Shown here: one piece after another, positions 6,791 to 54,491 of the stretch | How positions within the stretch are numbered: position 1 is the first letter of the stretch | Layout of the letters: each line of letters opens with the position of its first letter | Origin: Eubacteriales bacterium | GTDB lineage: Bacteria; Bacillota; Clostridia; Oscillospirales; CAG-272 | Assembly: GCA_045596925.1 (NCBI GenBank) | Contig: JAZODH010000075.1 | Span: forward strand, 1 to 54,491 | Reading direction: 5' to 3' | DNA length: 54,491 nt | The notes under the pieces: model-generated | The model's input: only the letters and a program-made list of their open reading frames with translations | Database searches by the model: none | What the model was told of the DNA's origin: nothing | Position numbers and translations under genes: made by a program

Positions 6791-7033
6791 TTATATGCTC
6801 TTTATTTGCGCAATGCAAGTGTGACAAACCCTTTTGCCGCCGAAGAAGATCACGTCGTCCGCATTTCCGCAGAATATGCAGGATGGTTGGTATTTCATCA
6901 AAATTATTCTGTCCTCGTCGGTGAAAATCTCAATGGCGTCTTTTTCTTTGATGTCCATGGTCTTTCTGATCTCCATGGGAAGCACGATCCTGCCCAGTTC
7001 ATCTACTTTGCGAACGATTCCGGTTGATTTCAT
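6791..7033 (-). CDS. abrB: AbrB-family transition-state regulator
   Basis: MKSTGIVRKVDELGRIVLP and C-terminal CIFC...VCHTC. Confidence 0.93.
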   Translation of the reverse strand: MKSTGIVRKVDELGRIVLPMEIRKTMDIKEKDAIEIFTDEDRIILMKYQPSCIFCGNADDVIFFGGKRVCHTCIAQIKSI

Positions 7034-12122: not shown

Positions 12123-12221
12123 AAAAAACGACGGCTGAACACCGCCAAGCCCCTTTAAAAAGGGGCCTGGACTCCCCAAACTAAACTTTAAAAAAACGAC
12201 GGCTGAACACCGTCGTTTTTT
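12123..12221. repeat. Dispersed intergenic repeat, copy 1, with duplicated AAAAAACGACGGCTGAACACCG
   Basis: 12145-12221 closely matches the reverse complement of 47162-47237. Confidence 0.85.
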
Positions 12222-47161: not shown

Positions 47162-47237
47162 AAAAAAACGACGGTGTTTAGCCGTCGTTTTTTCTCTTTA
47201 GTTTGGGGAGTCCAGACCCCTTTTCAAAGGAGCTTGG
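47162..47237. repeat. Dispersed intergenic repeat, copy 2 (includes bidirectional terminator hairpin)
   Basis: Reverse complement closely matches 12145-12221. Confidence 0.85.
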
Positions 47238-48098
47238 TCAATACACCCATTTGCTTGGGATGAAATGGTCGGTATAGATACCGTGGAGACCGAATTTTCT
47301 CCAATTTTCAAAGGTTGAAAGGTCGTTTACCGTGTGGGTGTAGACCACGACGCCAACGTCGGAAACCCGCGCGAGCAGTTCCTCGTTGAGTACCGTTTCG
47401 GGTATAGTCACCGCATATGGCTTTTGCTCACATATAAAGCTCACTATCTCTCTGACGGGACTGTTCATGGCGTAAAGAGTGAGTATAACGTCATTGAATC
47501 CCAGCTCTCGTGCCGTTATGTATTCCTCATAGGAATAAGTCTGGGGAATGAAGCGGTCTTTTCCCGCCAGGGTTGACAGATGGGTGAGGAATGGCAGATT
47601 TTCGCACTTTGCATCTGTGACAATTCTGCAATCAGGGTGATCTTCAAGCCACTCGACCAGCATATCCAGATCGAGCAGGGTGAGATCGGCAAAGACGTCG
47701 GAAGCCAAAAACTCGCTGTGCGTCAGTTGACCCTGCGAAAAGAGCATTCGCTCTGCCATAGACTCCCAATCGTGCAGGAGGACATACGCCCCGTCCGAGG
47801 TGATCTGGAAATCAAGCTCGATGAGACGAAAACCGTTTGCGTAGGCGTTGTTTATTGCTTCGAGAGAGTTTGAGAGACGGTAGCCGTAGATCGAACCGCC
47901 CGCGTGCGCAATAAGGGCAGGGTAGTCTGCCTTGTTCCAGGCGTCGGATACGTCGGGTAGAGGCTCTGTGTCGGGTGGAGAAGTTTTGGGGGTGTCAGCA
48001 GGATCTGTGTCGATAGGGTTGACCGAGCCGTTTGCTGTGCAAGCGCACAGGATCAGTACTGCCGCCGCCATTATTAAGATCAAACGCCAAAAACGCAC
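47238..48098 (-). CDS. Glycerophosphodiester phosphodiesterase-family lipoprotein
   Basis: GGAGG RBS and GTG start, LCAC lipobox, IAHAGG, IELD, LLHDW. Confidence 0.85.
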   Translation of the reverse strand: MRFWRLILIMAAAVLILCACTANGSVNPIDTDPADTPKTSPPDTEPLPDVSDAWNKADYPALIAHAGGSIYGYRLSNSLEAINNAYANGFRLIELDFQITSDGAYVLLHDWESMAERMLFSQGQLTHSEFLASDVFADLTLLDLDMLVEWLEDHPDCRIVTDAKCENLPFLTHLSTLAGKDRFIPQTYSYEEYITARELGFNDVILTLYAMNSPVREIVSFICEQKPYAVTIPETVLNEELLARVSDVGVVVYTHTVNDLSTFENWRKFGLHGIYTDHFIPSKWVY

Positions 48099-48179
48099 CT
48101 TTCTCCCTCCTTTGCTTGTCTGATATTGTCTCATTATAGCACGATTTTTCTGTTTCGTCAAGACCGGGCAGGGAAACGT

Positions 48180-48228
48180 GACCGCAGCAGAAAACGACGG
48201 CAACAAGCCGTCGTTTTCTGCTGCGGTC
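48180..48228. terminator. 22-bp-stem hairpin downstream of spoVT
   Basis: GACCGCAGCAGAAAACGACGGC-AACAA-GCCGTCGTTTTCTGCTGCGGTC. Confidence 0.75.
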
Positions 48229-48254: not shown

Positions 48255-48722
48255 TCAGGTCTCCAGCTGACGTCCCAGAAATGAGGCGGCAGTTTGTATG
48301 AGCTTTGCTTCGATCTCGCCGTTGCTCATCTGATTTTTAGAGTCACCGTCGCTCATGACTGAAGCAACGCAACCAATGATGTCCCCCTCGGAGAGGATGG
48401 GCATGGCACAGCTGACGTAATGAGGTGCGCCGTCGGCGGTGACGGGGATCTTTTCCGCGCCGTCGCGCCAGGTGTAGAGACTTCTGTTTTCGATCAGGGA
48501 TTCAAGCTCGCCGGAGAGCGGCTTTTCCGAGTATTCTTTTTTGGGCACGCCCGCGCAAGCGATAACTGCGTCGCGGTCGCAGATGACTACGGACAGAGAG
48601 CAGGTCTTGTGCAGGGTCTCGGCATACTGACCCGCAAATTCGGTAAGCTCACCTATGGGTGAGTATTTTTTGAAGATGACCTCCCCCTCGCGGTCGGTGA
48701 AAATTTCCAACGGGTCGCCCTC
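48255..48722 (-). pseudogene. spoVT: 3' portion of interrupted stage V sporulation protein T gene
   Basis: EGDPLEIFTDREGEVIFKKYSPIGEL...ICDRD...PILSEGDIIG...TAASFLGRQLE corresponds to SpoVT from about residue 30; the MKATGIVRRIDDLGR N-terminus is not in the window. Confidence 0.9.
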
Positions 48723-50465
48723 GCTGATAACATTGACAGTATAAGCCTTAGTCGGCTGATTTACCGACTTATGGGTGTACTTGGTACTAAATGCGCTACC
48801 TATACTGTCATAATTAAAATTTACGTTTTCCTCTCGGCAGGGAAGTGTACCTGTTTTGAGCAGTTGTTCAATATCCGTTTTCAGCTGAATATCGACTGTG
48901 TTGCTGTCGAAAACCGAAATTTTGTCAACGATAAGGGAGATGTCCGACTTGCTCAATTTTTCTTTGGCTAAAATATCGTCAAAGACATCGAACACGGTCT
49001 TTGCTACTCTCGCGATCTCAACGATAGAGCTTCGTTTTTCTATGCAGTCCTGTAACTGTGCCTGGCACCCATAGATTTTGTGGGTTACTTCTTCTTCCAA
49101 TTCTCTGTAGGTCTCCTCGATTAAATCCTCGTCGTCGGGGTTTTTGCATATATCCTTGATCTTTTGCTTTTTCAGCGCCTTGAGCTCCTCTTTTGCGCTG
49201 TCAAGCTGTTTTTCTAAGATTTTGATGATCTTGTCGCTGTCCTTTACGGACTCTCCCTCGACGGCGATGGTTTTCTCAAGCTCGGAGATTATGCTTTGAC
49301 AGTTCTGCTTTATCAGGCGAACGTAATCCTTCAGAACCGAGTCGAGAAAATCAATTCTTGTGTTGTGCGAAGAACAGGCTTTGGAACCGCGCTTGTGATA
49401 GGTTCCGCAAATATATGACGAGGGCAGGTCGGGTCGGCTTCGGCTGAACATCGGGCTCTGGCAATCTCCGCAGAACAAATATCCCGTATAGGGAGTTTCG
49501 TATTTTTTTGTGCCGCGATAGTGTGATGTTGACCTTTTTGCTAACAGCTCTTGAGTGTATAAAAATGTCTTGTCGTCGATTATGGCTTCGTGGTGCTTCT
49601 CAATCACGATGTGTTCGCTTTTGTCCAGCCGCTTGTCTGCTCCTTTGATGCTTTTTCTTGTGTACTTGTGTCCTCTGAAGGTGCCGATGTAGTAATCGTT
49701 TTCGAGAATTGATTGAACGGTTATTATGCTCCATTCATTCTTGACAGTTCGGTTGTAGCTTTTGTCCTCCGCTTCGGCGCGTTCCTTTTCCTTCATTCTT
49801 GGGGTGGGGATATTCTTGTCGGTGAGATGGTTTGCGATTTTTTTGTATCCCATACCCTTCTCCGAATAAAGACGGTAGATCTCCTTTATAACCTCTGCCT
49901 CGTCGGGAACAACGGCAACTTCGTTTTTCTTCTGATTTTTGATGACGTAACCGTACGGAACGGCGCAAAGCCATTCGCCTGCCTGTTGCATACTTGCGAT
50001 ACTTTTTCTCACGCTTTCGCTGGTGGTGGTTACGGGCATTTCGTTGAATACGAAATGCATTGCGATCAGCTGCCAGTTGTTGTCGGTGGGATAGTCTACA
50101 CTGTCCATTATGCTGATGATGCGGATCCCCTTGTCACGCATCTGCTCAAGTTCCCAAAGACCGAGGCTGGTTCGTCTTGAAAAACGGGAGAAGTTTTTGA
50201 CTATGATTATTTTTGACTTGCCGCTGAGCAGGTTTTTCTTCATAGTCATGTAATTTTCTCGTTCCTCGAAGGTGTAACCCGATCTGTCGCGGTCAACGTA
50301 TTCCTTTACGGTGCAGTTGGGGAAGTGTTGCTTGACGAACGTATTTATAATTCTCAACTGGTTTTCGATTGAGGTGTTAGAATCGCTTTCTTTTTCGGTG
50401 TCTACGGAAATTCTCGCGTATGCGGAGATCTCCTCTCTCAATTCATAATCGGGAGTCGTTACCAT
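48255..50465 (-). CDS. Large serine recombinase fused in frame to the C-terminal part of SpoVT
   Basis: YARIS catalytic Ser, DRDRSG, VKNFSRFSR, VPYGY, Zn ribbon CGDC...C...C and coiled coil (residues 1-581), followed by the SpoVT sequence. Confidence 0.93.
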   Translation of the reverse strand: MVTTPDYELREEISAYARISVDTEKESDSNTSIENQLRIINTFVKQHFPNCTVKEYVDRDRSGYTFEERENYMTMKKNLLSGKSKIIIVKNFSRFSRRTSLGLWELEQMRDKGIRIISIMDSVDYPTDNNWQLIAMHFVFNEMPVTTTSESVRKSIASMQQAGEWLCAVPYGYVIKNQKKNEVAVVPDEAEVIKEIYRLYSEKGMGYKKIANHLTDKNIPTPRMKEKERAEAEDKSYNRTVKNEWSIITVQSILENDYYIGTFRGHKYTRKSIKGADKRLDKSEHIVIEKHHEAIIDDKTFLYTQELLAKRSTSHYRGTKKYETPYTGYLFCGDCQSPMFSRSRPDLPSSYICGTYHKRGSKACSSHNTRIDFLDSVLKDYVRLIKQNCQSIISELEKTIAVEGESVKDSDKIIKILEKQLDSAKEELKALKKQKIKDICKNPDDEDLIEETYRELEEEVTHKIYGCQAQLQDCIEKRSSIVEIARVAKTVFDVFDDILAKEKLSKSDISLIVDKISVFDSNTVDIQLKTDIEQLLKTGTLPCREENVNFNYDSIGSAFSTKYTHKSVNQPTKAYTVNVISEGDPLEIFTDREGEVIFKKYSPIGELTEFAGQYAETLHKTCSLSVVICDRDAVIACAGVPKKEYSEKPLSGELESLIENRSLYTWRDGAEKIPVTADGAPHYVSCAMPILSEGDIIGCVASVMSDGDSKNQMSNGEIEAKLIQTAASFLGRQLET

Positions 50466-50498
50466 GTTATATATTTCCTTTCGGTATCATCTTGCAAT

Positions 50499-50527
50499 AT
50501 TGTAACACAAAATTTCAAAAAAATCAA
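50499..50527 (-). promoter_or_regulatory. Sigma-A-type promoter of the serine recombinase
   Basis: TTGATT-17 bp-TACAAT with extended TG; AAGGA RBS downstream. Confidence 0.65.
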
Positions 50528-50607
50528 GTACCTTATAAAAAATATGCGGCACAATTTGTACCGCATTGGTGTATGTTATGTCTTTAGAGTAGGATCTTTT
50601 TTTCAAT

Positions 50608-50838
50608 TTATGCCGCAGAGTGGGCGTGTGTGTTTCGGCGGAGCAATTCCGACGTGGCGGACATCAAGTCGCCGTTGCCTGAACGGTAGATGACCTTTTT
50701 GAATTTGTCGTTCGGTGCTACTTTCGTGAATATTTCATTGATCTTGTTCATAAAATTGGGCGCTTCGGTGTCCTCTTTGTTGCACCAAAACTGCACGACC
50801 TTGATTTCATCGTTTATTGTTATTCTGATATTTCTCAC
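50608..50838 (-). CDS. Small hypothetical protein upstream of the recombinase
   Basis: AAGGAG RBS, GTG start, 76 aa, hairpin downstream. Confidence 0.7.
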   Translation of the reverse strand: MRNIRITINDEIKVVQFWCNKEDTEAPNFMNKINEIFTKVAPNDKFKKVIYRSGNGDLMSATSELLRRNTHAHSAA

Positions 50839-50991
50839 TCCTTTCTTCTTAATTATTTGGTTAATAAAATTTGTTTTATTCGCTTTGGAAAAGCGTTTGA
50901 GTACCGTATTGTTTTTTAAAAAATCGTATCCTTAACTCCTGTTTTGTGTGTTTCTATTAACAGTATGTTGGATAATCTGTATTCTCAATTT

Positions 50992-51942
50992 TTAAGTTAG
51001 CAAATAGCTCGCCACAGTCACGTCGCAACGAAAATGTGCGAGATGAAAGACACTGACCGCCATAAGGCAAAGCTTATTATATTTAGTCGGCAAGCCCCTT
51101 GATTTTGCCAATTTTCTGTTCTCGCCACGCAAGTGATAGTTGCCTTGTATTAGATGCTCCTTGAACAGTGCCGGCTTACCGGTTTTCTTGTTTATTTTTG
51201 TTGTTTCGTATCGTAGCCGAACCTCTTGTTCCAGTTGTTCCCTACCTTCCTTTGTTTGACACAGGAACGCATAATAGTCATATGCCCTTTGCGCTTGCAA
51301 AGCGCGAAGATGATGGTAGTCTATCTTATTTTTAAATTCCTCGGGTGAAAAAATCAGCTCGTCGGGACCTTTGTCGCGGAAATAGGATTTTACGAATTCC
51401 ACGTCCTCAGGCAATAATCTCTGTTCCTGTCGGCGTCCTCCTTTTCCTTTTTCAACTATTACTACGGGGGACCCACTCCCGTCGTAGCCAAAGTCTCGGC
51501 CCTTCAATCGTTTAAGCTCTGCCCGTCTGATTCCGACGCACATCTGGAACCCCACCGTTCTTGCGTACTTAGGATTAGAAATATCATTATCGCTGTGTTG
51601 AGCCTTGCCGTTATCACCGCGACTGCGCTTGTACTGTGCGGTGACGCGCTTCGGCTTCTTTATCCCATCCAGTGGGACGCTATGAAACAGTCCCACCGGA
51701 GCGAGGTATGAATGTACGGTCGATGCGGACAAGCCTCGGCCTACCAGGTGGTCAGCATATTCCTGGATATGCCGACCACATTCGTCTTTGGTTCTGCAAT
51801 CGAACTCCGATCTGCAGAAATCTATGAACCGTTTATAATTGGAAACGAATGCTCGGCGAGTGACGTTATTGTCGTATTTATCGAAGAACCTGCGTGCATC
51901 GTCGAGCATCTGACGGGTAACCGTCTTTTTTCTTTGCTTCAT
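50992..51942 (-). CDS. Tyrosine recombinase / integrase-family protein
   Basis: STVHSYL, GIRRAEL (R), KGKGG (K), HHLR (HxxR), LAH and C-terminal Y; AAGGAG RBS before ATG 51942. Confidence 0.88.
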   Translation of the reverse strand: MKQRKKTVTRQMLDDARRFFDKYDNNVTRRAFVSNYKRFIDFCRSEFDCRTKDECGRHIQEYADHLVGRGLSASTVHSYLAPVGLFHSVPLDGIKKPKRVTAQYKRSRGDNGKAQHSDNDISNPKYARTVGFQMCVGIRRAELKRLKGRDFGYDGSGSPVVIVEKGKGGRRQEQRLLPEDVEFVKSYFRDKGPDELIFSPEEFKNKIDYHHLRALQAQRAYDYYAFLCQTKEGREQLEQEVRLRYETTKINKKTGKPALFKEHLIQGNYHLRGENRKLAKSRGLPTKYNKLCLMAVSVFHLAHFRCDVTVASYLLT

Positions 51943-51962
51943 ATCTGTCAACTCCTTTCGAT

Positions 51963-52009
51963 AGGAGTATGAAAGATATAAAAAATAAAAAACGGCTTTT
52001 GAATGAGTA
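51963..52009. repeat. Outer inverted repeat, left copy
   Basis: 39 of 47 nt identical, ungapped, to the reverse complement of 53965-54011. Confidence 0.85.
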
Positions 52010-52118
52010 TTTTTTGGCATTTTTAAGGTAACGAGGATTTCCGGTAAAATTACACTTCGATTTCTTCTCTTTATGTGAATGAAAAATGACCTCCGTCAAT
52101 GGCAGAGGTCGGTTTTGC

Positions 52119-52547
52119 TTATTGGGTTTTCGGTTTCTTGATCTTAAGTTTCAGCTCCGGCGGAATTTGAATGGTGTACAACGTATAGAAATCCGTGTTG
52201 TTCTTTATGTTCATAGCCAAAACCACAAAATCGTCCAGAGTATTTTTGGGACCGAAACGATGATCCGCCCAAAATCCGAAGCGTGTTCTTTGGTCTGCGC
52301 TGAAATCAAAGAACATACTGCCCAGATAATTCATCTTGGACAGAAATTTCGGTTGGCCTCGGCTGTTGAAGATGGCCTCTGACAGTCGGAAGCTGTTGCA
52401 GACCACCTTTTGAATTTCAAATTCTTGCGGGGGTATTCCCTTGTCCTTCGTCAGCCTGTCCAGTTCTTTTTGGGTGATCGGAAACGGTATCCAGACCCCC
52501 TTGGATTTTTCCTCTTTTGCAATTAAGATCTTGATTTGTTGCTTCAT
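52119..52547 (-). CDS. Hypothetical protein with ArdA N-terminal-like pattern
   Basis: GGAGG RBS; GVWIPFP...EL...GI...MNYL pattern; own terminator hairpin at about 52083-52115. Confidence 0.6.
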   Translation of the reverse strand: MKQQIKILIAKEEKSKGVWIPFPITQKELDRLTKDKGIPPQEFEIQKVVCNSFRLSEAIFNSRGQPKFLSKMNYLGSMFFDFSADQRTRFGFWADHRFGPKNTLDDFVVLAMNIKNNTDFYTLYTIQIPPELKLKIKKPKTQ

Positions 52548-52608
52548 TTTTTCCTCCGTGAATTTTATTTGTTAAACATCACGCTCCTGCTGTGTTTAAC
52601 CTTCAACA

Positions 52609-52628
52609 TAAATATGTCAGAAAACGGA
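52609..52628. repeat. Inner inverted repeat, left copy
   Basis: TAAATATGTCAGAAAACGGA, exact reverse complement of 53082-53101. Confidence 0.92.
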
Positions 52629-52733
52629 ACCCGTTAATTTTATATTCTTACGTTTTCTTTCATACTGTTTTTAGACGGAAAACACTTGTTGGAGTACAAG
52701 ATCATTTCCGAACAAAATTTTGGAGGAGTACCA

Positions 52734-53030
52734 ATGAAAAACAACAAATATTTCGAATTAAAATGCACTATCGATCACGGTGAACAGCTGTCAATACGCA
52801 TCCCCGACTCTTGTCGAGAAAATTTCCATTACACGATTTCCGGCAGAGACGAAAGCGCAATGGCATGTTTGACCGAGCTGTTTGGCGAATATGCCAAGCT
52901 GGACACAGTCAAACGCAAGACGTTTCAGGCATTGATTGACGAGCGTGCAGACCAGGTATCCACGTTGGACGATCTGCTGGTGTTGCTCAAGGTAGTGCGT
53001 CTTTGTGACGTATACGTACCAAAGAGATGA
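52734..53030 (+). CDS. Hypothetical protein, weak ArdA-like pattern
   Basis: GGAGGAG RBS; KLD...TFQALI...TLDDLL; terminator at about 53036-53064. Confidence 0.6.
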   Translation: MKNNKYFELKCTIDHGEQLSIRIPDSCRENFHYTISGRDESAMACLTELFGEYAKLDTVKRKTFQALIDERADQVSTLDDLLVLLKVVRLCDVYVPKR

Positions 53031-53081
53031 TCGGGAAAGGGCGAGATAAAAATCTCGCCCTTTTGTTACTTTTTATGAGTC

Positions 53082-53101
53082 TCCGTTTTCTGACATATTT
53101 A
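53082..53101. repeat. Inner inverted repeat, right copy
   Basis: TCCGTTTTCTGACATATTTA. Confidence 0.92.
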
Positions 53102-53162
53102 AGGCAAGATGGAATACAAGTTTTGAGTAATTCATCAAAAACATAAAATGGAGGACAGACAA

Positions 53163-53660
53163 ATGTCAAAAACCAAAAGGCAAAAGCAAGAACCGGTGTA
53201 CATGCAGATTGAAAAGTTTGCAAACGAGAAACCGCTGTTTCTGCGGGTTCCAAATCATTTCCAAACGATAATGGACAGATTGATACAGCAAGATGACATA
53301 AAGGATTACCGCAATTCAAAAATCGTTCTGAAGATTTTTTGCGAGGAATTTACAAAACTGAATACAGAGGAACGAGATAAGGTAAAAACGTTGATCAACT
53401 GCAAGATCGCTCCGGCGGAAACTTTTTTCGATCTTATCACGATTATGCAGCAAAGAGACCGCTACTATATTCTTGATGGGGTCGACACGAACCAAAAACT
53501 CGGAGAATTCCATATCTTCGCGGCCAGAAATCAGGCGATGGATAATTGGGCGGCCAAAGAAGACTACGCAAATTCCAAGCTGGTCGGTAAAAAAATCAAA
53601 AATGCTGAGAAAGGCGTGTTTTATCAGAACAGTTACGTAGGAAAATATGGTTGTTTTTGA
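53163..53660 (+). CDS. Hypothetical protein with ArdA C-terminal-like pattern
   Basis: GGAGG RBS; DLI...YYILDGV...LGEF...DY...G...EKGVF...YV; terminator at about 53670-53700. Confidence 0.65.
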   Translation: MSKTKRQKQEPVYMQIEKFANEKPLFLRVPNHFQTIMDRLIQQDDIKDYRNSKIVLKIFCEEFTKLNTEERDKVKTLINCKIAPAETFFDLITIMQQRDRYYILDGVDTNQKLGEFHIFAARNQAMDNWAAKEDYANSKLVGKKIKNAEKGVFYQNSYVGKYGCF

Positions 53661-53964
53661 ATGAAAAGAAGCGGCGAGATCTTATGATCTCGCCGTTTTT
53701 CCGTAACATTTTGAATGTAAAAATCTTTACAAGCCTTGAAAATAAAGGATTCTTACATTGCACAAGCACGTCCAGCTTTGATTTTGGTTTTGAAAGAGAA
53801 ATTGGCATTGGAGGTAGGATTGTTGACGTTTGGTTTGGCTTTATTTGAATATTTATTTTGCATGATTGATTGAAAAACATTAAAAGAGATTCGACCTTGT
53901 TAGAAAGGGAAATAAAAAATCAACTATGAAGTGTCTGTTTTAGGAGAATGTTTTTTATAAAAAT

Positions 53965-54011
53965 TACTTATTCAAAAGCAACTTTTTATTTTTGCTTTCT
54001 ATCATACTCCT
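53965..54011. repeat. Outer inverted repeat, right copy
   Basis: TACTTATTCAAAAGCAACTTTTTATTTTTGCTTTCTATCATACTCCT. Confidence 0.85.
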
Positions 54012-54065
54012 TTTCGCAGGGCAGGGGAACTGTTGTGATCAAATCATTATAAAGGAGTATAGAAA

Positions 54066-54491
54066 ATGGCAAATTACACACGCGCTATCAAAACCGACGT
54101 CTGGATCAATAAGGATTTCAGGAAAATGACACCTCAAGAGAAAATCTTCTGGTTTTACCTACACACAGGCTATCATTCCTCCGAGACGGCACTATATGCG
54201 TGTCCAGTTGAAGACATCGCATTGTTTTGCGGCATTTCAAAGAAGAAAGCCAAAGAGATGATCGATAAATTCTGTGAGCAGGGAAGTATCTCATACGATT
54301 TTATGACGGACGAGCTTCTTGTCAAGGATTACTTTGATTATCACCCGCCCATCGGCGGCCTGTACTACAGAATGTACTCAAACGATCTTGCGAAAATCAA
54401 ATCTCAACTACTGATCGACGAGCTGGTGGAGATGTCAAAGAAGTACAAGATTTCACTTGCATTCTTTGCCGCTCTCCGTGACCTCCGTCCC
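54066..54491 (+). CDS. Phage-type replication initiator N-terminal domain, truncated by window edge
   Basis: Not in the ORF track. AAGGAG RBS; MANYTRAIKTDVW...MTPQEKIFWFYLHT...IALFCG...ISYD...ELLVKDY, open to the window end. Confidence 0.65.
   Translation, partial: MANYTRAIKTDVWINKDFRKMTPQEKIFWFYLHTGYHSSETALYACPVEDIALFCGISKKKAKEMIDKFCEQGSISYDFMTDELLVKDYFDYHPPIGGLYYRMYSNDLAKIKSQLLIDELVEMSKKYKISLAFFAALRDLRP

Follow-up and report, generated by a model that had tools for sequence, protein, structure and literature searches.

An attL allele of a large serine recombinase fused in frame to spoVT, with a predicted attachment site inside its own reading frame

Results

The window analysed here, a 54,491-nucleotide stretch of DNA, contains on its minus strand a hybrid gene of 736 aa (48255..50465) that appears in the ORF listing as a single frame with an ATG start and no internal stop, and that represents a large serine recombinase (LSR) in its attL form, with the frame running on into codons 32-184 of spoVT. 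The hybrid, of ~83 kDa as a protein, comprises, in order, a complete LSR, a predicted disordered linker and SpoVT beginning at codon 32 and ending at the gene's own stop. The element-derived part (amino acids 1-583; 48717..50465, minus strand) was delimited from Pfam matches, residue conservation and an AF2 model, and contains a catalytic domain (Resolvase, PF00239, residues 15-165 of the hybrid), a Recombinase domain (PF07508, 187-311) and a zinc ribbon (Zn_ribbon_recom, PF13408, 325-383), with Y16, R18, S20 and D22 invariant across 65 sequences. In the AF2 model these domains form a folded LSR that reaches approximately residue 538, the zinc ribbon carrying a coiled coil at about 371-500 with long helices at 371-441 and 443-500. 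The linker at 538-585 is predicted to be disordered (pLDDT <50) and contains two conserved motifs, NFxFDSI and K-x-Y-T-V-N-V.

The remainder of the hybrid, D584-T736 plus the stop codon (48255..48716, minus strand), is the 3' part of spoVT; it takes in the GAF domain (SpoVT_C) and, from the AbrB-type domain, the beta3-beta4 hairpin, and is 92% identical to the intact SpoVT of two other genomes (G004 and G009). Pfam places SpoVT_C (PF15714) at 606-735 with a match to the full profile (1-128; E 6e-39, 133.5 bits), and in the AF2 model the second beta-hairpin of the AbrB-type domain lies at 586-600 and the whole GAF domain at 603-735, the latter complete and confidently folded (pLDDT 77-89). The swapped-hairpin DNA-binding domain is incomplete, as SpoVT residues 1-31 are absent and only the second hairpin is present; PF04014 scores 13 bits on the hybrid, below its cut-off. 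BLAST extensions to SpoVT residues 4-21 hinted that the LSR tail might stand in for the first half of the AbrB fold, absent here; we rejected this, the identities being trivial and residues 538-585 unstructured in the AF2 model. From the symmetry of the site, the crossover is placed in the codon of D584, equivalent to SpoVT D32, giving approximately 583 aa of element and 153 aa of SpoVT. The first-pass annotation had described an LSR joined in frame and without a stop to half of an AbrB-type fold plus a GAF domain, and the reading frame, the Pfam domains, the AF2 model and a break in synteny all bear this out; its division into 581 and 155 residues differs from ours by two residues, both identical in the two parents.

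Synteny with two same-genus genomes in which spoVT is uninterrupted (L002 and L003) stops at 48728/48729. Comparison across genomes indicates that the junction is not an assembly artefact, because the same in-frame fusion occurs at the identical site in 78 of 80 loci from other species' genomes, the 80 being the best of 573 confirmed genome hits in a ranking whose query included SpoVT and which is thus biased to fusions. An assembly chimera or a chance read-through peculiar to this contig, to which a 99-contig draft and the truncation of the element by a contig end might lend themselves, has next to no probability, as the recurrent junctions include cultured isolates and single-contig genomes, a check for the same architecture among the 120 best-matching protein clusters of LSR relatives found SpoVT_C in 97, and contigs of two public sequencing runs bridge the junction in close relatives.

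Just past the spoVT stop lies a strong hairpin terminator of 20 pairs (48182..48226), shared by spoVT and a convergent GDPD-family gene (47238..48206). Upstream of the hybrid, 34 nt before the LSR ATG, a sigma-70-like match with an extended -10 (TTGATT-17-TACAAT with TG, 9/12; 50499..50527, minus strand) accounts for a sigma-A-like promoter proposed earlier; the match is present, but such sites are no commoner here than in shuffles (5 found against 4.1 +/- 2.3 expected), so a promoter before the LSR is plausible, no more. A terminator-like hairpin (50544..50566, minus strand) separates this match from a 76-aa gene directly upstream (50608..50838, minus strand), which has no Pfam or PHROG match and for which 15 of the 95 loci searched have a relative upstream of the LSR. 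This conserved neighbour is a candidate accessory or directionality factor. A complex prediction of LSR residues 160-540 with the 76-aa protein scored 0.80, with one control at 0.61, and carries no weight in this assignment. Farther into the element are a 342-aa gene (50992..52020, minus strand) with a weak tyrosine-integrase-like PHROG match (E 4.6e-5) and relatives of 45-64% identity in 4 of the 95 loci searched (locus L188 covering the same place as L163), and the start of a gene for a DnaD-like helicase loader or replisome organiser (54066..54491, plus strand), which is cut by the contig end.

The window holds the left 5.8 kb of the integrated element (48716..54491), which runs off the contig. 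The far end of the element, an attR carrying codons 1-33 of spoVT, is missing from the assembly as searched by profile, tblastn, blastn-short (with a relative's 5' exon) or whole-protein searches, which returned only AbrB paralogues; a 764-aa frame on contig C83 flagged by the AbrB profile proved to be an unrelated regulator/acyl-CoA-synthetase-like frame. Searches for a second SpoVT_C copy found none in this genome (G000) or in five other carrier genomes. The host retains Spo0A, SpoIVA and SASP genes.

The architecture of the attachment sites emerged from four complete relative elements of 15,962, 17,895, 20,379 and 41,016 bp, in which the 8-nt core GG(C/T)GACCC is all that attL and attR have in common. 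Positions 3 and 9 of the core differ on one side only, which puts the exchange within GACCC. In the window, attL occupies 48690..48745, with the core CGGGTCGCC (plus strand) at 48711-48719 and a central dinucleotide, GA on the gene strand, at 48715-48716, an assignment drawn from symmetry and one-sided differences rather than cleavage data. The element-side outer motif ACATTGACAG (plus strand; 48730-48739) encodes T-V-N-V, and the attP deduced from these sites is almost perfectly palindromic about GA, with inverted repeat arms CTGTCAATGT ... ACATTGACAG. In the four complete elements attR reads MKATG...RIREGDP followed by 24-57 element-encoded aa, and in the same-genus genomes G012 and G016 the attR tail is 5-43 aa. 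HMMER matches to residue ~50 had suggested that this tail completes the AbrB fold, which the sequences themselves rule out. The 5' exon and 3' part of spoVT share the core in one frame in all four elements, and spoVT can be rebuilt in silico. This comparison of attL with attR indicates that the attachment site is inside the LSR reading frame, as had been claimed from the window alone.

In its excised form the recombinase would carry a different C-terminus, and natural proteins of this type were identified. Between 13 and 15 proteins without SpoVT_C end in a homologous tail of 29-45 aa after the core, which, compared as protein only, is alignable almost without gaps in 14 sequences whose LSRs are 53-64% identical. 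Contigs encoding four such proteins (P0015, P0025, P0029 and P0050) measure 41-122 kb. The tail of P0015 is predicted to be helical at 592-616 (pLDDT 52-64), and no contact between tail and LSR core is seen in AF2 models (pTM 0.32 and 0.37). The frame stays open between the folded part and the core, with no stop in the 45-codon linker in 120 of the 120 best relatives; the open linker and the conserved excised-type tail together thus suggest that the C-terminal region is under selection, and exchanging the tail may well affect recombinase activity. With the attL and attR sequences of the four elements, the proteins without SpoVT_C uphold the earlier claim of different C-termini in integrated and excised forms and indicate that the LSR ends differently according to its integration state.

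The hybrid gene belongs to a large, apparently undescribed element family of gut Clostridia in which the recombinase-SpoVT fusion is the regular outcome. Fusion hosts include Oscillospiraceae, Acutalibacteraceae, Lachnospiraceae, Flavonifractor, Lawsonibacter and others, and of 150 SpoVT_C matches listed from a sample of 301 genomes of the order, 13 belong to frames of 721-808 aa. Each of the 78 fused spoVT parts extends to the natural stop, and all 5' exons seen are intact. Preservation of frame across insertions, proposed as a check, held for 78 of 78 sense-oriented fusions; their independence did not, and the agreement is weak evidence because the insertions share one homologous attP x attB geometry and were ranked with a query that included SpoVT. 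Overall, 103 of 120 rows are sense and 12 antisense, and on a family tree built with FastTree orientation has flipped at least six times, scored by GSPS, which is what the core encodes when the EGDP codons are read in reverse complement. Antisense integrants either read through for about 35-53 aa without a SpoVT tail (P0007, P0019-21 and L117) or stop immediately (L181 and P0068), and a close relative, P0080, is fused to MutS_V, a MutS-type C-terminus.

The LSR evolves at a dN/dS of 0.03-0.06 and the fused spoVT part at 0.02-0.08, the latter value being undatable relative to insertion with many pairs saturated; for these reasons dN/dS was set aside as a test for selection after insertion. Small elements carry ordinary island cargo and no phage genes, and cargo differs among related LSR elements across many species, which indicates that the LSR module is mobile. 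A search of cultured phages yielded no close relative, the best matches being 47-50% identical fragments from faecal viromes. Six family members occur in IMG/VR (L028, L029-L034); each lies at a contig end, and two have the SpoVT fusion. The public runs listed include no RNA data, and four DNA sequencing runs (Logan contigs) contain only fragments of 90-95% relatives. Loose ends at 48724-48738 in public runs were considered as a sign of excision and rejected, as they belong to other family members or to the intact spoVT of others.

Discussion

The sequence comparisons establish the anatomy of the hybrid, the structure of the attachment sites, the swap of tails and the family-wide occurrence of the arrangement. 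We consider it likely that the hybrid is the attL allele of an LSR inserted in spoVT codon 32 with attP in its own frame, and that the fusion is a by-product of an insertion whose main effect is interruption of spoVT, probably reversible. In this family the attP crossover, GA within GGC-GA-CCC, falls inside the recombinase's own frame, approximately 45 codons past the last folded LSR domain and within the predicted disordered tail, and attB sits in spoVT in the same frame. Because of this arrangement, every sense integration would yield an in-frame LSR::SpoVT(32-end) hybrid at attL and a SpoVT(1-33)::short-tail stub at attR, and the excised circle would re-create an LSR with its own conserved, predicted helical tail of 24-57 aa. 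We infer that the SpoVT/GAF tail is a passenger rather than a selected module, a reading favoured by the repeated orientation flips, the tail-less antisense integrants, the MutS_V fusion and the placement of the junction where pLDDT is below 50. Any functionally relevant change for the recombinase would be the loss of its native tail on integration. Against the passenger reading, the sense orientation predominates, which might be due to selection favouring the fusion and not to shared descent.

A built-in state switch, in which the swap of C-termini would itself change recombinase behaviour, has a small but appreciable chance of being correct. On this view the native amphipathic tail would make the excised form competent for integration or short-lived, and the attL form with a dimerisable GAF domain would be stabilised, silenced or excision-biased, a pair of effects to which we give the same small chance and which would recall the int alleles of phage Mx8, where, in the accessible part of PMC6070905, integration gives int a new 3' end and altered specificity. 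The tail swap is real and family-wide, and the near gap-free conservation and predicted helicity of the excised-type tail, the stop-free linker and the prevailing sense orientation all agree with a switch. Against it, integrants without a SpoVT tail recur at least six times in the tree, and because L181 ends right after the core, the SpoVT part is not generally required. The conserved YTVNV and xLT motifs by the core coincide with the attP inverted DNA repeat, so part of the apparent protein conservation is conservation of a DNA site. In addition, tails of 24-57 codons are no longer than chance would give, the probability of no stop in 24 codons being an estimated ~0.3 at 3/64 stops, and the low-pTM AF2 models place no tail against the LSR core. 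The specific proposal of the first-pass annotation, that the GAF domain could control the recombinase, finds no support in these analyses, and the flips, the flipped integrants lacking SpoVT and the MutS-type fusion count against it.

The insertion could also be a dead end, with spoVT permanently knocked out, the hybrid ORF inert and carriers defective in late spore maturation; we regard this as unlikely. The single SpoVT_C of this genome and five other carriers, the small elements with island cargo and no phage genes, and the unassembled attR of G000 are compatible with such decay. What speaks for the preferred reading of a reversible interruption is that all 78 fused spoVT parts and every 5' exon seen are intact, that the LSR is under purifying selection with its catalytic residues kept, that the module is mobile across many species with varied cargo, and that the host retains core sporulation genes. 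Since both halves share the core in one frame, precise excision would restore spoVT. The absence of a second SpoVT_C in the genomes searched also counts towards reversibility, and on these sequence features the interruption is probably reversible.

Reversal would nonetheless have to occur in the right cell. The portion of PMC3738446 available to us describes C. difficile spoVT as expressed in the forespore under sigma-F/G dependence, and for a forespore gene excision limited to the mother cell, as with skin, would leave the function missing in the compartment that requires it. A reversible switch is therefore less straightforward for spoVT than for known cases. One rather improbable resolution is that the tail swap acts as a state sensor for a forespore-gene switch, the native-tailed LSR of the circle being integration-competent and the GAF-tailed LSR at attL excision-poised or inert. 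Were this true, the element would vacate spoVT once SpoVT is required in the forespore, travel in the spore in circular form and insert again during germination. The skin principle of the mother cell would then have a germ-line equivalent, and the two Mx8 int alleles a first counterpart among serine integrases.

It is very improbable that the hybrid protein acts on sporulation through its GAF domain, whether SpoVT-like or dominant-negative: the GAF domain is complete and confidently folded, but the DNA-binding domain lacks residues 1-31, searches of G000 and the five other carriers turned up no intact SpoVT partner, and the BLAST similarity of SpoVT into the LSR tail is weak and falls in a stretch that AF2 shows as unstructured.

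The family is common: such long frames contain approximately one in twelve of the spoVT genes listed from gut and rumen Clostridia sampled across the order. Automatic annotation labels the hybrids as sporulation or recombinase proteins; given how common they are, sporulation gene censuses of gut anaerobes will misread these genomes. The well-studied gene-intervening elements all reside in mother-cell genes, where excision carries no cost to the element, and a family dedicated to the gene of a forespore regulator raises the question of how host and element both persist. Cultured carriers include Lawsonibacter celer NSJ-47 (with an element of 20.4 kb), Pseudoflavonifractor phocaeensis An858 (16.0 kb), Eubacterium sp. 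MSJ-21 (17.9 kb) and Flavonifractor isolates. For serine-integrase engineering, the family offers a natural series in which one core and the same linker either end without a tail or continue into the native tail or a folded domain of 153 aa. Its attP is nearly a perfect palindrome, and the central dinucleotide alone resets the orientation.

Among known systems, the element resembles the gene-intervening elements skin/sigK, SPbeta/spsM, vfbin/spoVFB, vrin/spoVR and gin/gerE, some of which are non-phage islands (accessible parts of PMC4191935, PMC5595907 and PMC5499854), in placing an LSR-bearing element inside a sporulation coding sequence, with a short core that allows precise excision, in a host with sporulation genes. 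As the available text of PMC4191935 describes, skin-type targets are mother-cell genes, and excision is confined to the mother cell while the spore keeps the element; spoVT, by homology with C. difficile (PMC3738446, part available), is a forespore gene, which would argue against simple skin-type membership. The available text of PMC4191935 contains no occurrence of spoVT, and the corresponding parts of PMC4191935, PMC5595907 and PMC5499854 describe no LSR frame crossing attP. Listeria phage A118 and its relatives in comK, and the LSRs surveyed for their targets by Durrant et al. [quoted passage not shown] The main texts of both, as far as available, mention neither spoVT nor an LSR frame crossing attP, and the supplementary lists of PMC10083194 may include spoVT; supplements aside, our literature search found no paper on an element in spoVT or on a serine integrase frame crossing attP. 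Archaeal SSV-type integrases also have attP inside int, and the part of PMC7253208 available describes their integration as "suicidal", splitting the gene into two inactive parts. Set beside that description, our element shares a recombination site within the integrase ORF but exchanges a tail past the folded enzyme, and the recombinase class and domain of life differ.

In mycobacteriophages with integration-dependent immunity, attP lies inside the repressor gene and the C-terminal tail is a degradation tag. The likeness to these phages drawn by the first-pass annotation holds loosely: here too attP lies inside a gene and integration changes the C-terminus of an element protein, but that gene is the recombinase itself rather than a repressor, and the new tail is not known to act as a degradation tag. 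Myxophage Mx8 is a closer precedent, since its attP lies inside int and integration makes a recombinant gene with another C-terminus without destroying the enzyme (PMC6070905, in the part available). As in Mx8, the crossover here falls inside the integrase ORF and the integrated and excised alleles differ at their 3' ends; unlike Mx8, which has a tyrosine recombinase and non-sporulation targets, the enzyme here is a serine recombinase and the tail that it acquires is a folded host domain.

Results

The large serine recombinase (LSR) of the window reads in frame into spoVT from codon 32, forming a single uninterrupted ORF of 736 aa (48255..50465, minus strand) that carries the Pfam domains Resolvase (aa 15-165), Recombinase (aa 187-311), Zn_ribbon_recom (aa 325-383) and a full-length SpoVT_C (aa 606-735, E 6e-39). 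Our assembly, G000, is a 99-contig draft of 1.98 Mb of which the window is all of contig C75. The same-genus genomes G004 and G009 hold an uninterrupted spoVT (~184 aa), and their synteny with the window runs through the downstream genes to 48728/48729 and ends there. The one-frame LSR-SpoVT fusion described in the first-pass annotation is therefore confirmed. The sigma-A-like promoter proposed with it fares less well: a sigma-70-like site does lie 34 nt 5' of the ATG, but such matches are no commoner than in shuffled sequence (5 observed, 4.1 expected). In an AF2 model of the hybrid (pTM 0.32) the LSR fold stops at about residue 538, residues 538-585 have pLDDT <50, and an orphan hairpin (586-600) precedes a well-predicted GAF domain (pLDDT 77-89), the parts having no defined contact with each other. 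Within the window's portion, the element also has a gene weakly resembling tyrosine integrases and one for a DnaD-like loader.

Aligning natural attL, attR and attB stretches located the junction. The sole sequence common to both element ends is GG(C/T)GACCC, encoding G-D-P at SpoVT 31-33 (att core, window 48711-48719), and among carriers with complete elements one-sided differences at position 3 (G041) and position 9 (G042, G043, G044) confine the exchange to GACCC. On the element side the arms mirror each other, with CTGTCAATGT on the left and ACATTGACAG on the right (left outer motif, window 48730-48739); this inverted repeat is centred on GA within the Asp codon, which is what one expects of a serine-integrase attP whose crossover spans 2 bp. 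The predicted location of the attachment site within the recombinase ORF holds, since the LSR frame runs uninterrupted across core and outer motif. The peptides flanking the core (YTVNV before, xLT after) are the translated attP inverted repeat, and LLxTLT also arises from the left arm read backwards (loci L117 and L181).

The spoVT 5' exon was not found in the G000 assembly, and the window's element is therefore incomplete. An 83-aa AbrB-type gene (window 6881-7033, minus strand; 67% identity to the SpoVT N-terminal 39 residues) is G000's only strong match to the missing part. Four other carriers hold both ends on one contig (elements of 15,962, 17,895, 20,379 and 41,016 bp), and in these attR consists of spoVT codons 1-33 followed by 24-57 element-encoded residues; two same-genus genomes have attR tails of 28, 43 and 5 residues, the last in a mutated copy. 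Given this attR structure, the excised LSR allele would end in the element-encoded tail. Alleles of this type are present in public databases. When relatives were scored with the LSR part alone (aa 1-590), 23 of the best 120 lacked SpoVT_C. Of these 23, 13 have 29-45 aa of homologous tail beyond the core, which is sense in six and antisense in seven, and two others have a divergent core. The tails of fourteen of them align almost gap-free, though enzyme identity is 53-64%, and in protein cluster P0015 the tail is predicted by AF2 as a terminal helix (592-616, pLDDT 52-64, shallow alignment). The attR tails and the natural proteins with homologous tails thus support the proposal that integrated and excised states encode different C-termini. 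A same-genus contig (G012:C51) has two spoVT 5' exon copies (L022 and L026, at about 5.3 kb and 20.6 kb) on the same strand, 15 kb apart and with the same upstream residues, the second with a mutated core (GGCGACTCT) and the 5-aa tail. A second 5' exon there is more than simple tandem integration can account for.

The fusion is a family trait and not a peculiarity of one genome. In the LSR-only ranking, 97 of the best 120 protein clusters have SpoVT_C. Of 599 pattern hits in species-representative genomes, 573 encode relatives. Preservation of frame across insertions, a point raised in the first-pass annotation, receives weak support from the best 80 loci: 78 of them join LSR and spoVT in frame at one and the same position (...K-[VA]-[FY]-x-V-N-V-I-x | x-G-D-P-L-E-I...), but these insertions share one homologous attP x attB geometry and the count is biased because the ranking query contained the SpoVT part. 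They lie in Oscillospiraceae, Acutalibacteraceae, Lachnospiraceae, Flavonifractor, Lawsonibacter, Pseudoflavonifractor, Intestinimonas and others, and the hosts include cultured isolates. In a less biased sample of 301 genomes drawn evenly from the order, 262 have SpoVT_C. Among the 150 SpoVT_C matches listed, out of 272, at least 13 belong to open frames 721-808 aa long, judged by frame length and with G000 counted. Within the genus, 5 of 16 genomes having a SpoVT match (G000 included) carry the insertion. The LSRs of the other four share only ~60% identity with that of the window, which means that the genus was entered by at least two element lineages. The LSR-spoVT family is common in gut Clostridia.

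G000 retains Spo0A, SpoIVA and SASP genes, and no second SpoVT_C was found in G000 or five other carriers. All 78 fused spoVT 3' parts reach the natural stop and the 5' exons observed are intact; the LSR keeps its catalytic residues (dN/dS 0.03-0.06), and the fused spoVT part has a dN/dS of 0.02-0.08, similar to uninterrupted copies and not datable relative to insertion. Since the core stands in the same frame in both parts of spoVT, precise excision would rebuild the gene. We therefore read the element as an interruption of spoVT, probably a reversible one.

The cargo of the complete small elements is of the island type: an SLH surface protein, histidine kinase, Fic, STAND NTPase, a type I restriction system with tyrosine recombinase, and an AbiE-like pair identified by eye. 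A small number of family members also occur in IMG/VR, where they form putative prophage ends. The 17.9-kb element of Eubacterium sp. MSJ-21 (L191, G044:C12:58500-77800) is a defence island. It holds R and M genes for type I restriction, a shufflon-like arrangement of two S genes around a tyrosine recombinase, Fic and a gene weakly matching STAND NTPase. Just upstream of the window's LSR lies a small-protein gene (50608-50838, minus strand; motif W..T..E ... K-Y ... V-F-x-S-G-x-G-D-L ... L-L-x-x-N), with relatives so placed in 15 of 95 loci searched (e.g. L111:1759-1983) and no match in Pfam or PHROG; its product is a candidate accessory or directionality factor. A ~70-nt dispersed repeat (window 12150-12221 and 47162-47193) recurs on 20 or more G000 contigs at 75-93% identity and adjoins spoVT in a relative (L002 2960-3036). 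A crude motif scan found further long frames with the serine-recombinase RF[SA]R motif on G000 contigs C40, C53 and C90 (and C85), a single one reaching 1192 aa and the rest 501-579 aa, and G000 may hold several LSR elements. A 764-aa frame at G000:C83:11999-14290 (plus strand), by eye with XRE-type HTH, cupin-like and acyl-CoA-synthetase-like parts, is unrelated to the fusion.

Discussion

The exchange of C-terminal tails is genuine and may have consequences for the enzyme. A general role for the SpoVT tail is opposed by the antisense integrants. The core is readable both ways, and LSRs in which the E-G-D-P codons appear as their reverse complement, G-S-P-S, insert in the opposite orientation, running ~35-53 residues antisense through the spoVT 5' exon (P0007, P0019-21, L117) or stopping immediately (L181, P0068). 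When all 120 LSRs are placed on a FastTree phylogeny, the 12 antisense rows adjoin sense rows and their label must have changed at least 6 times, and P0080 (728 aa), which lies near sense-type relatives, has an in-frame MutS-type (MutS_V) C-terminus; these observations also count against such a role, as do the derivation of the core-flanking peptide motifs from the attP repeat and the contact-free AF2 prediction. Clusters P0080, P0083 and P0064, close relatives of spoVT-targeting LSRs, differ after the same core, with an in-frame MutS_V-type C-terminus, a stop after 2-3 codons or an unrelated 40-aa tail, possibly reflecting secondary target sites. Importance of the C-terminal region is favored by the linker of ~45 codons, stop-free in all 120 relatives, its near-invariant residues (N549, F550, D553, S554, Y575-N578), the conserved excised-type tail and the predominant sense orientation. 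Control of the recombinase by the GAF domain, as earlier suggested, finds no support so far, the antisense integrants ending without a SpoVT part. The original observation is thus confirmed and its interpretation supported in part.

Our literature search turned up neither a description of an element in spoVT nor one of a serine integrase with a reading frame that spans attP; spoVT is unmentioned in the main text of a large LSR survey, whose supplements may list it as a target. Cultured carriers make the LSR-spoVT element open to test. As an interruption of a sporulation gene it is similar to skin, SPbeta, vfbin, vrin and gin, which lie in mother-cell genes and are excised only in the mother cell, the spore retaining them (PMC4191935). 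It differs from them in its host gene, as spoVT of C. difficile is sigma-F and sigma-G dependent (PMC3738446). For the tyrosine integrase of Mx8, attP is described as lying inside int, so that in the prophage allele the 3' end is new and the specificity altered (PMC6070905), and SSV-type archaeal integrases likewise carry attP inside int (PMC7253208). The spoVT element combines an LSR gene-intervening element with an attP inside the integrase gene.
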